From a virus, in IMG/VR virus record IMGVR_UViG_3300009130_000012, positions 1 through 64,000 of that record: DNA of 64,000 nt; one strand, written 5' to 3'. The position numbers and the translations under genes were made by a program. Positions within the stretch are counted from its first letter, which is position 1; the number at the start of each line of letters is the position of its first letter. Positions 2,522 to 3,143 of the stretch are shown piece by piece. A model generated the notes under the pieces. That model searched no databases. It was not told the DNA's origin and saw only the letters and a list, made by a program, of their open reading frames with translations.

Positions 2522-2606
2522 TACTGCCGATGGGGTTCGAACCCACACGTTCCATAAGGAACCCAGATTGAAAGTCTGGTTGCTTAACCAATTTGCATAC
2601 AGCAGC
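2522..2606 (-). tRNA. tRNA with Glu anticodon (TTC) on a long-variable-arm, Leu-like body
   Basis: GCTGCTG/CGGCAGT with A73; D arm TGC-AAATTGGTTAA-GCA; CCAGA-CTTTCAA-TCTGG; variable stem GTTCC-TTAT-GGAAC; GTGGG-TTCGAAC-CCCAT. Confidence 0.85.
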
Positions 2607-2992: not shown

Positions 2993-3026
2993 AAAAAAAC
3001 CCGACTAAATTTCTTCAGTCGGGTTT
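2993..3026 (-). terminator. attenuator terminator (3:4 hairpin) upstream of the tRNA array
   Basis: minus strand AAACCCGACTGAA-GAAA-TTTAGTCGGGTTT-TTTT, ending about 16 nt before tRNA-Phe. Confidence 0.88.
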
Positions 3027-3053
3027 CACACTACACAATCAATTTATACTAAA

Positions 3054-3143
3054 TCATTTATCGTAACGAACATATCCGACTGGACTGAAGCTATAATCCG
3101 CTTCGGCATAAAACCATTCAAATATGTTGTTAAATCTTTTCAT
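3054..3143 (-). CDS. 29-aa attenuator leader peptide MKRFNNIFEWFYAEADYSFSPVGYVRYDK
   Basis: ATG at 3143 to TGA at 3054; lies between a promoter and a terminator; codons 7-17 match the seven downstream tRNAs; contains segments complementary to the terminator 5' arm. Confidence 0.8.
   Translation of the reverse strand: MKRFNNIFEWFYAEADYSFSPVGYVRYDK

Follow-up and report, generated by a model that had tools for sequence, protein, structure and literature searches.

Here, we describe a tRNA gene of a marine T4-like phage that joins the glutamate anticodon UUC to a long variable arm, and we provide comparative evidence that it is probably a functional tRNA-Glu in class II shape, which reads GAA and GAG and most likely receives its glutamate from GluRS. 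The design is widespread, and carriers of such tRNAs range from a gut megaphage to a marine T4-like phage and a Klebsiella phage. To our knowledge, the textbook rule is that a long variable arm is found in bacteria only on Leu, Ser, Tyr, and Sec tRNAs, and synthetases and other enzymes sort tRNAs by this arm. A conserved, selected long-armed tRNA-Glu that is widespread in large phages breaks the rule. In a literature search, we found no paper describing long-armed tRNA-Glu in phages or in Stephanstirmvirinae. The stretch of DNA analyzed here, 64 kb in length and hereafter called the window, adds a marine T4-like carrier, a D arm common to phage tRNA-Tyr and long-armed tRNA-Gln, a covarying 15-48 pair, and a link to cultured Klebsiella phages that makes the design testable at the bench.

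The tRNA gene and its operon

The source record is a 100,844-bp virus with a completeness judged at about 30%, and the window is its first 64 kb (G+C content of about 30%). Open reading frames of the window encode a T4-type portal, a major capsid protein, a terminase, and a ClpB-like ATPase as identified with Pfam, and the public sequencing runs that contain the stretch are seawater or marine metagenomes, with no RNA run among them.

The tRNA gene and the operon features described in this section lie on the minus strand. ARAGORN places a tRNA with anticodon ttc at 2521–2606, and the Rfam tRNA family RF00005 matches 2522–2606 over the full model (54.4 bits compared to a gathering score of 29, E = 6e-9). 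Read from the sequence, the acceptor stem GCUGCUG/CGGCAGU has 7 bp with G1.U72 and C2-G71; the discriminator A73 is located at 2522 and CCA is not encoded. The D arm (2581–2597; read from the sequence and supported by Rfam) consists of the 3-bp stem UGC/GCA and the 11-nt loop AAAUUGGUUAA, with A13.A22 unpaired. The anticodon arm CCAGA-CUUUCAA-UCUGG has a perfect 5-bp stem and a 7-nt loop (2568–2574), in which ARAGORN and Rfam agree on the anticodon UUC at 2570–2572. The variable arm (2549–2562; Rfam and predicted fold) is a 5-bp stem, GUUCC/GGAAC, with the loop UUAU; it is followed by a G and U48 (2547–2548) and by a normal T arm, GUGGG-UUCGAAC-CCCAU. The minimum-energy fold yields the acceptor, D, anticodon, and variable stems.

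The initial annotation, made from the sequence alone, had described a Glu anticodon in the loop CTTTCAA on a class II body with the arm GTTCC-TTAT-GGAAC, a 3-bp D stem with a large loop, and A73, and all of these details proved correct. A sequencing error in the anticodon is ruled out, as contigs of four runs (X1 to X3 from one study and X4 from a second) cover the gene with zero differing letters and the homologues all carry UUC. Reading the anticodon in a shifted register as UCA (Sec-like or opal) is likewise ruled out by the 7-nt loop with its perfect 5-bp closing stem, the 7/5 stems, and the conservation of the loop. The 85-nt stretch at 2522–2606 is therefore a genuine tRNA of class II shape, on which ARAGORN, Rfam, the fold, and the identical contigs agree.

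The gene is part of an operon with the order leader uORF and hairpin, tRNA-Phe, tRNA-Asp, probable tRNA-Ala, tRNA-Tyr, tRNA(UUC), a DUF559-type ORF, tRNA-Trp, and a CAU tRNA-like gene. The leader (2993–3143) comprises a 29-codon uORF (MKRFNNIFEWFYAEADYSFSPVGYVRYDK) at 3054–3143 and then a strong hairpin with a U run at 2993–3026, just upstream of tRNA-Phe. The uORF is rich in codons for the operon's own tRNAs, and the two GAA codons that had been noticed in the leader are indeed among them. Its codons 7–17 (I F E W F Y A E A D Y) specify only amino acids that are served by operon tRNAs, namely Ile (via CAU), Phe, Glu, Trp, Tyr, Ala, and Asp. The leader looks like an attenuator of the tRNA operon.

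The first tRNA gene of the operon is tRNA-Phe(GAA) at 2904–2976 (Rfam). It is followed by tRNA-Asp(GUC) at 2796–2866 (ARAGORN and Rfam), which has the unusual T loop AGCAUAA in place of the standard UUCGAAU, and by a probable tRNA-Ala(UGC) at 2710–2783, which was read from sequence and fold, has G3.U70 and the T loop AGCAUGA, is without a clear D stem, and was missed by ARAGORN and Rfam alike. The T loops of these two neighbors are similar to each other and both non-standard. The class II tRNA-Tyr(GUA) at 2617–2701 (ARAGORN and Rfam) is the direct neighbor of tRNA(UUC), and a tRNA-Tyr also adjoins the long-armed tRNA(UUC) homologue of a Lak megaphage. Just downstream of the Glu tRNA and within the tRNA cluster, a 302-aa ORF (1549–2457) has a DUF559/MTES_1575 endonuclease-like domain (Pfam) and probably encodes a homing endonuclease. 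The tRNA-Trp(CCA) at 1465–1546 (ARAGORN and fold) keeps G73 and has a 5-bp variable arm, GGGUA-ACG-UACCC, so that two tRNAs of this operon combine a class I identity with a class II arm. The CAU-anticodon tRNA-like gene at 1383–1459 (29.3 bits with Rfam) is reduced to about 4 nt at the site of the D arm, and 18 extra nt follow its anticodon arm. A stretch with 84.6% identity to it, which bears no annotation, lies between the tRNA-Trp and tRNA-Met of the crAss-like Kehishuvirus 'tikkala' (L002 3001–3065).

A family of long-armed tRNA(UUC) in large phages

With blastn, the window tRNA matched an 85-nt tRNA of the 642-kb Lak-type megaphage LR756502 with an identical anticodon arm. At acceptor pair 4-69 and T-stem pair 50-64, the two genes differ by compensatory changes; the variable arm of the megaphage tRNA has a wholly different sequence with its pairing intact. 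Further members were collected by two pattern scans. The first, on IMG/VR, constrained D arm and T loop with no condition on the anticodon; its hits were five bearers of UUC (L004, L005, L009, L013, and L014) and otherwise GUA, i.e., tRNA-Tyr. Leu anticodons (NAG or YAA) were found neither among the homologues nor in this anticodon-free scan, which is the opposite of the outcome that the initial annotation had named as a refutation, a set of homologues with Leu anticodons throughout. The second scan of viral sequences asked for CTTTCAA followed 16–30 nt later by the T arm and yielded 21 viral contigs, many of them 100–480 kb long, with tRNA(UUC) of 83–91 nt; the invariance of anticodon loop and T arm among these hits is partly by construction because the scan fixed both. 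In total, about 20 distinct homologues were found in large phages. All have UUC, and the loop CUUUCAA is the same throughout, including the members from the anticodon-free scan.

Over 21 distinct sequences, pairing is kept in 96.1% of the stem cells, and both partners have changed in 15 of 21 pairs. Not one of 500 shuffles reached the observed share of paired cells, the number of pairs or cells with both partners changed, or the covariation score, and sliding the partners by 1–3 columns as a control gave a pairing of just 35–43%. Judged from these substitution patterns, the cloverleaf of the long-armed tRNA(UUC) family is under selection. The variable arm has a narrow layout of 0–1 nt, a 3–6-bp stem, a mostly 4-nt loop (often GNRA), and 1–4 (mostly 2–3) nt. 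Its stems differ in sequence between homologues and keep their pairing in all of them; neither stem nor loop letters are conserved (loops are, e.g., GAAA, GUAA, UUAU, and UCUU). No Glu-like triplet is kept among the loops, and we thus reject the idea of an anticodon mimic in the arm. The tertiary pair 15-48 covaries as well, being A15-U48 in the subfamily of the window and G15-C48 in the other, with one exception; the arm thus forms part of an otherwise normal L-shaped core.

The discriminator is A in 18 members and U in three, and G in the relative L013, which has the D arm of the window type but a short variable loop. Two of the relatives with U73 (L005 and L009) also have the window-type D arm. 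Other members show the canonical tRNA-Glu D arm: L033, L019, and L034 have a D arm of the GUCGACUAGUGGUUUAGGUC type with U13.G22, while L033 and L019 share the acceptor end of the window (GCUGCCG/CGGCAGU-A compared to GCUGCUG/CGGCAGU-A, counted as shared) and L034 has the anticodon arm of the window. A canonical tRNA-Glu D arm with U at position 13 was present in eight relatives, and the U13.G22 pair was scored in six of 21.

The family reaches into cultured phages, as the Klebsiella phages KP13-26, phi1_175008, FKP3, and KP2025 and the Citrobacter phage Tr1 carry long-armed tRNA-Glu. A search of 401 Bacteroidota genomes with the pattern CTTTCAN{17,30}GGTTCGAAYCC, which represents a sample of one phylum and one T-loop form, gave eight matches with no long-armed tRNA-Glu among them. 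In three complete or near-complete phage genomes, G003 (391 kb, with terminal repeats), G006 (149 kb, 100% complete), and G007 (141 kb, 96%), Glu is served by the long-armed tRNA alone, in sets of 17–37 tRNAs that include proper tRNA-Leu and tRNA-Tyr. The same is true for Klebsiella phage KP13-26 (OP617743.1, Stephanstirmvirinae, 144 kb), in which it is the only Glu tRNA among 24 tRNA matches, next to proper tRNA-Leu and tRNA-Tyr; this 86-nt gene, at 73921–74006, is identical to the copy in G006 and is labeled as plain tRNA-Glu in GenBank. Being the sole Glu tRNA of a phage is no proof of glutamate charging because a phage can use the tRNA-Glu of its host. An ordinary tRNA-Glu(UUC) accompanies the long-armed one on L001, L004, L005, L014, L019, L022, L026–L029, and L033.

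Probable glutamate charging and the variable arm

In Escherichia coli, U34, U35, C36, and A37 are strong determinants for GluRS, the augmented D helix (U11-A24, U13.G22..A46, absence of residue 47) is part of Glu identity, G1-C72 and U2-A71 are weak determinants, and the discriminator is not required (PMC9976931). All four loop determinants are present in the window tRNA and invariant in the family. GluRS would thus recognize tRNA(UUC) by U34, U35, C36, and A37; we infer charging via the anticodon loop because it holds the strong E. coli determinants and is the only identity region that is invariant in the family. The tRNA also resembles canonical tRNA-Glu(UUC) in its 7/5 stems and in the place that it takes in the phage tRNA sets. 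The differences lie in the variable region, where a 14-nt hairpin replaces the usual 4–5 nt, and, for the subfamily of the window, in the D arm, where a 3-bp stem with G11-C24 and A13.A22 stands in place of the augmented helix. The weak determinants are absent too, as the window tRNA has G1.U72 and C2-G71. Ordinary short tRNA-Glu of phages, however, usually have G1.U72 (15 of 21) and A73 (16 of 21), and the T arm of the window tRNA is identical to that of short tRNA-Glu of related phages. A73 is hence probably not a mark of Leu here.

Other long-armed phage tRNAs equally keep the acceptor-end marks of their own identity, with U1-A72 in four of four tRNA-Gln, G73 in Trp, Asn, and Asp, and C1-G72 in Pro, which indicates that arms were added to tRNAs that kept their identity and argues against Leu bodies with new anticodons. 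In the case of tRNA-Glu, a 3–6-bp hairpin with a 4-nt loop (often GNRA) would have been inserted into the variable region with the contacts of the L-shape retained, and in the subfamily of the window the D arm would also have taken the 3-bp class II form that is seen in phage tRNA-Tyr and long-armed tRNA-Gln. Charging would not depend on a synthetase of the phage's own, as most carriers have no phage GluRS. The Lak phage LR756502 encodes a bacterial-type GluRS (TIGR00464, 385.7 bits), and a second class Ic enzyme adjoins the tRNA-Gln genes in LR756502 and G001, whereas no phage-encoded class Ic synthetase was found in G002, G003, G004, or the 100-kb record of the window itself. The tRNA would supply one of the most used codons of the phage, as GAA ranks fifth in the window with 52 per 1000 codons (GAG, 17 per 1000).

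Glutamate charging of a long-armed tRNA raises the questions of how GluRS accepts the tRNA, given that the absence of residue 47 is a determinant in E. coli, how LeuRS and TyrRS reject it, and what the phage gains from the arm. The Klebsiella and Citrobacter hosts of the cultured carriers have E. coli-like synthetases, and these questions can therefore be answered by standard assays.

It is tempting to propose, though tentatively, that the arm alters the shape of the tRNA such that host tRNA-targeting nucleases or other shape-reading enzymes fail to handle it. In a possible extension, to which we give similarly limited credence, the class II scaffold shared by Glu, Gln, and Tyr tRNAs (a 3-bp D arm plus the added arm) might be a disguise that still satisfies synthetase and ribosome. 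Such a disguise would block host tRNA-targeting immune nucleases or the host-tRNA-destroying enzymes of the phage itself, and the addition of arms to many other class I tRNAs by large phages would follow the same scheme. Known phage tRNAs escape tRNA-targeting defenses by variants of the anticodon loop (PMC10264068), and the T5 tRNA-Lys that acts against PARIS is changed in the anticodon arm (PMC11464382). These tRNAs share with ours a structure unlike that of the host copy, and the logic proposed for the arm is the same. They differ in that the anticodon stem-loop is the changed part, whereas the tRNA described here leaves the loop as it is and gains an entire arm. If the arm is a disguise against tRNA-cutting defenses, it would represent a new mechanism in the arms race between phages and bacteria and a second route of tRNA-level counter-defense, distinct from anticodon-loop changes; if true, the tRNAs would also provide a natural scaffold for orthogonal tRNAs.

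A less probable explanation is that the tRNA is an ordinary tRNA-Glu whose hairpin is a tolerated insertion without adaptive role. The variable region points away from GluRS and other class I synthetases, and an arm at this site could thus be tolerated. The lack of conservation in the loop and stem letters fits this explanation, as does the occurrence of arms on many identities (Gln, Asn, Asp, Thr, Lys, Pro, Met, Val, Cys, and Trp) by no obvious rule. Yet compensatory changes maintain the hairpin across gut megaphage, marine T4-like phage, and Klebsiella phage, its geometry is held within the narrow limits given above, the D arm has changed along with the arm in one subfamily, and the pattern search of the 401 Bacteroidota genomes returned none.

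Other amino acids and roles outside translation

The initial annotation had left a choice between a disguised tRNA-Glu and a Leu-charged missense tRNA. The first reading, in which the disguise would allow escape from host tRNA-Glu-specific nucleases, is favored as far as the unusual shape of a tRNA-Glu is concerned, and we consider it improbable that LeuRS or TyrRS loads the class II body such that GAA and GAG are partly read as Leu or Tyr, be it as deliberate or as tolerated mistranslation of the kind associated with the nematode nev-tRNAs. A number of sequence marks would suit these enzymes. A73 is essential for E. coli LeuRS, which ignores the anticodon, and according to Asahara and co-workers the enzyme reportedly also uses A14, A15-U48, the G18G19 register, and a 3-bp D stem; all of these are present in the window tRNA, with G18G19 in Leu register, and its D loop AAUUGGU is as in phage tRNA-Leu. 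TyrRS uses A73, U35, and a long arm, which are likewise present, while position 34 is U and not G. The D arm is 0.95 identical to that of phage tRNA-Tyr and is common to long-armed tRNA-Gln as well. The arm geometry of bacterial class II tRNA-Tyr and tRNA-Leu (0–1 nt / 3–5 bp / 4-nt loop / 2–3 nt) is also similar.

When T arm, anticodon loop, and variable arm are excluded, the likeness of the window tRNA is 0.87 to other long-armed tRNA-Glu, 0.78 to the best Leu, 0.71 to the best short Glu, and 0.69 to the best Tyr, but overall likeness over these 70-odd positions alone does not decide between a Leu body and a Glu body. The description of the body as Leu-like thus has some ground in this ranking of Leu over short Glu; the D arm is nearest to phage tRNA-Tyr. 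In addition, the window tRNA lacks the Leu-specific D-arm string of these phages (UGGYGRAAUUGGUAGAC), with its G9, G10 ... GGUAGAC signature, and it differs from phage tRNA-Tyr, which has A73 in 16 of 16 and G1-C72 in 14 of 16 cases, by G1.U72 and by its anticodon.

The family speaks against charging with Leu or Tyr. The discriminator varies between A, U, and G, even among relatives with the same D arm (U73 in L005 and L009, G73 in L013), which disfavors LeuRS or TyrRS as the common charging enzyme, and several members have the canonical Glu D arm. Four phage genomes encode Leu and Tyr tRNAs of their own and have no Glu tRNA besides the long-armed one. Moreover, GAA and GAG together make up about 69 per 1000 codons of the window and encode catalytic glutamates, e.g., GAA specifies both Walker B glutamates of the ClpB-like ORF; with Leu or Tyr inserted at one codon in fifteen, the phage would thus harm its own proteins.

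Nematode nev-tRNAs and other eukaryotic noncanonical V-arm tRNAs provide a precedent for missense charging, as they likewise combine a class II shape with a class I, non-Leu anticodon; nev-tRNAs derive from tRNA-Leu and were described as decoding an alternative code for leucine (Hamashima et al., PMC3333845). A nev- or nov-tRNA identity would fit by shape, but the lineage here is phage, the family is linked to tRNA-Glu, its discriminator is variable, and it provides the only Glu decoder of several phages.

It is also very unlikely that the tRNA has no part in translation and acts as a decoy or sponge, e.g., of a nuclease that cuts tRNA-Glu, of a modification enzyme, or of a regulator, or as a glutamate donor to a tRNA-dependent enzyme. 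Many carriers also hold an ordinary tRNA-Glu(UUC) with the same anticodon, a redundancy that hints at a separate task, and some irregular tRNAs are charged yet unused in translation (PMC5389517). Against such a role, the tRNA fills the only Glu place in the near-complete tRNA sets of G003, G006, G007, and KP13-26, it has kept the parts needed for translation (7/5 acceptor and T stems, T loop, and a 7-nt anticodon loop with U33 and A37), and the operon leader of the window has GAA among the codons for the other tRNAs of the operon.

Allo-tRNAs and other irregular tRNAs, which were found in metagenomes and phage tRNA clusters, similarly have a long arm and anticodons other than Ser, Leu, or Tyr and are possible missense tRNAs; in allo-tRNAs, the acceptor/T stems are 8/4 or 9/3, the D arm is tRNA-Sec-like, and position 73 is G or U for Ser identity (Mukai et al., PMC5389517). 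The window tRNA differs by 7/5 stems, A73, and an ordinary D loop, and a tRNA-Ser or allo-tRNA identity is ruled out by A73 and the 7/5 stems, just as a tRNA-Sec (UCA, 8/5 stems, long D stem) is ruled out by UUC, the 7/5 stems, and the 3-bp D stem.

Further long-armed or unusual tRNAs were observed in the phages studied here. In the Lak megaphage (L035 1108–1425) and a 482-kb phage (L037 217–301), a class Ic synthetase gene, which probably encodes GlnRS (Pfam PF00749), is located directly downstream of tRNA-Gln genes that include an 85-nt long-armed tRNA-Gln(UUG); on L037, the D arm of this tRNA (UAUGCAAAUUGG) is the same as in the window tRNA-Glu. The 391-kb complete phage G003 (L038–L042) has long-armed Thr(UGU) in two copies, Gln(UUG), Lys(UUU), and Glu(UUC) next to normal class II Leu, Ser, and Tyr tRNAs. 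A long-armed tRNA of 87–88 nt is annotated as fMet in Kehishuvirus 'tikkala' (OQ198717.1, a cultured crAss-like Bacteroides phage; L002 5264–5351), and KP13-26 has an 85-nt long-armed tRNA-Asn (L051 2697–2781). The Klebsiella phage array (L024, L052 1757–1831) also includes a CUA-anticodon tRNA that is annotated as tRNA-Pyl, i.e., of the amber suppressor type.
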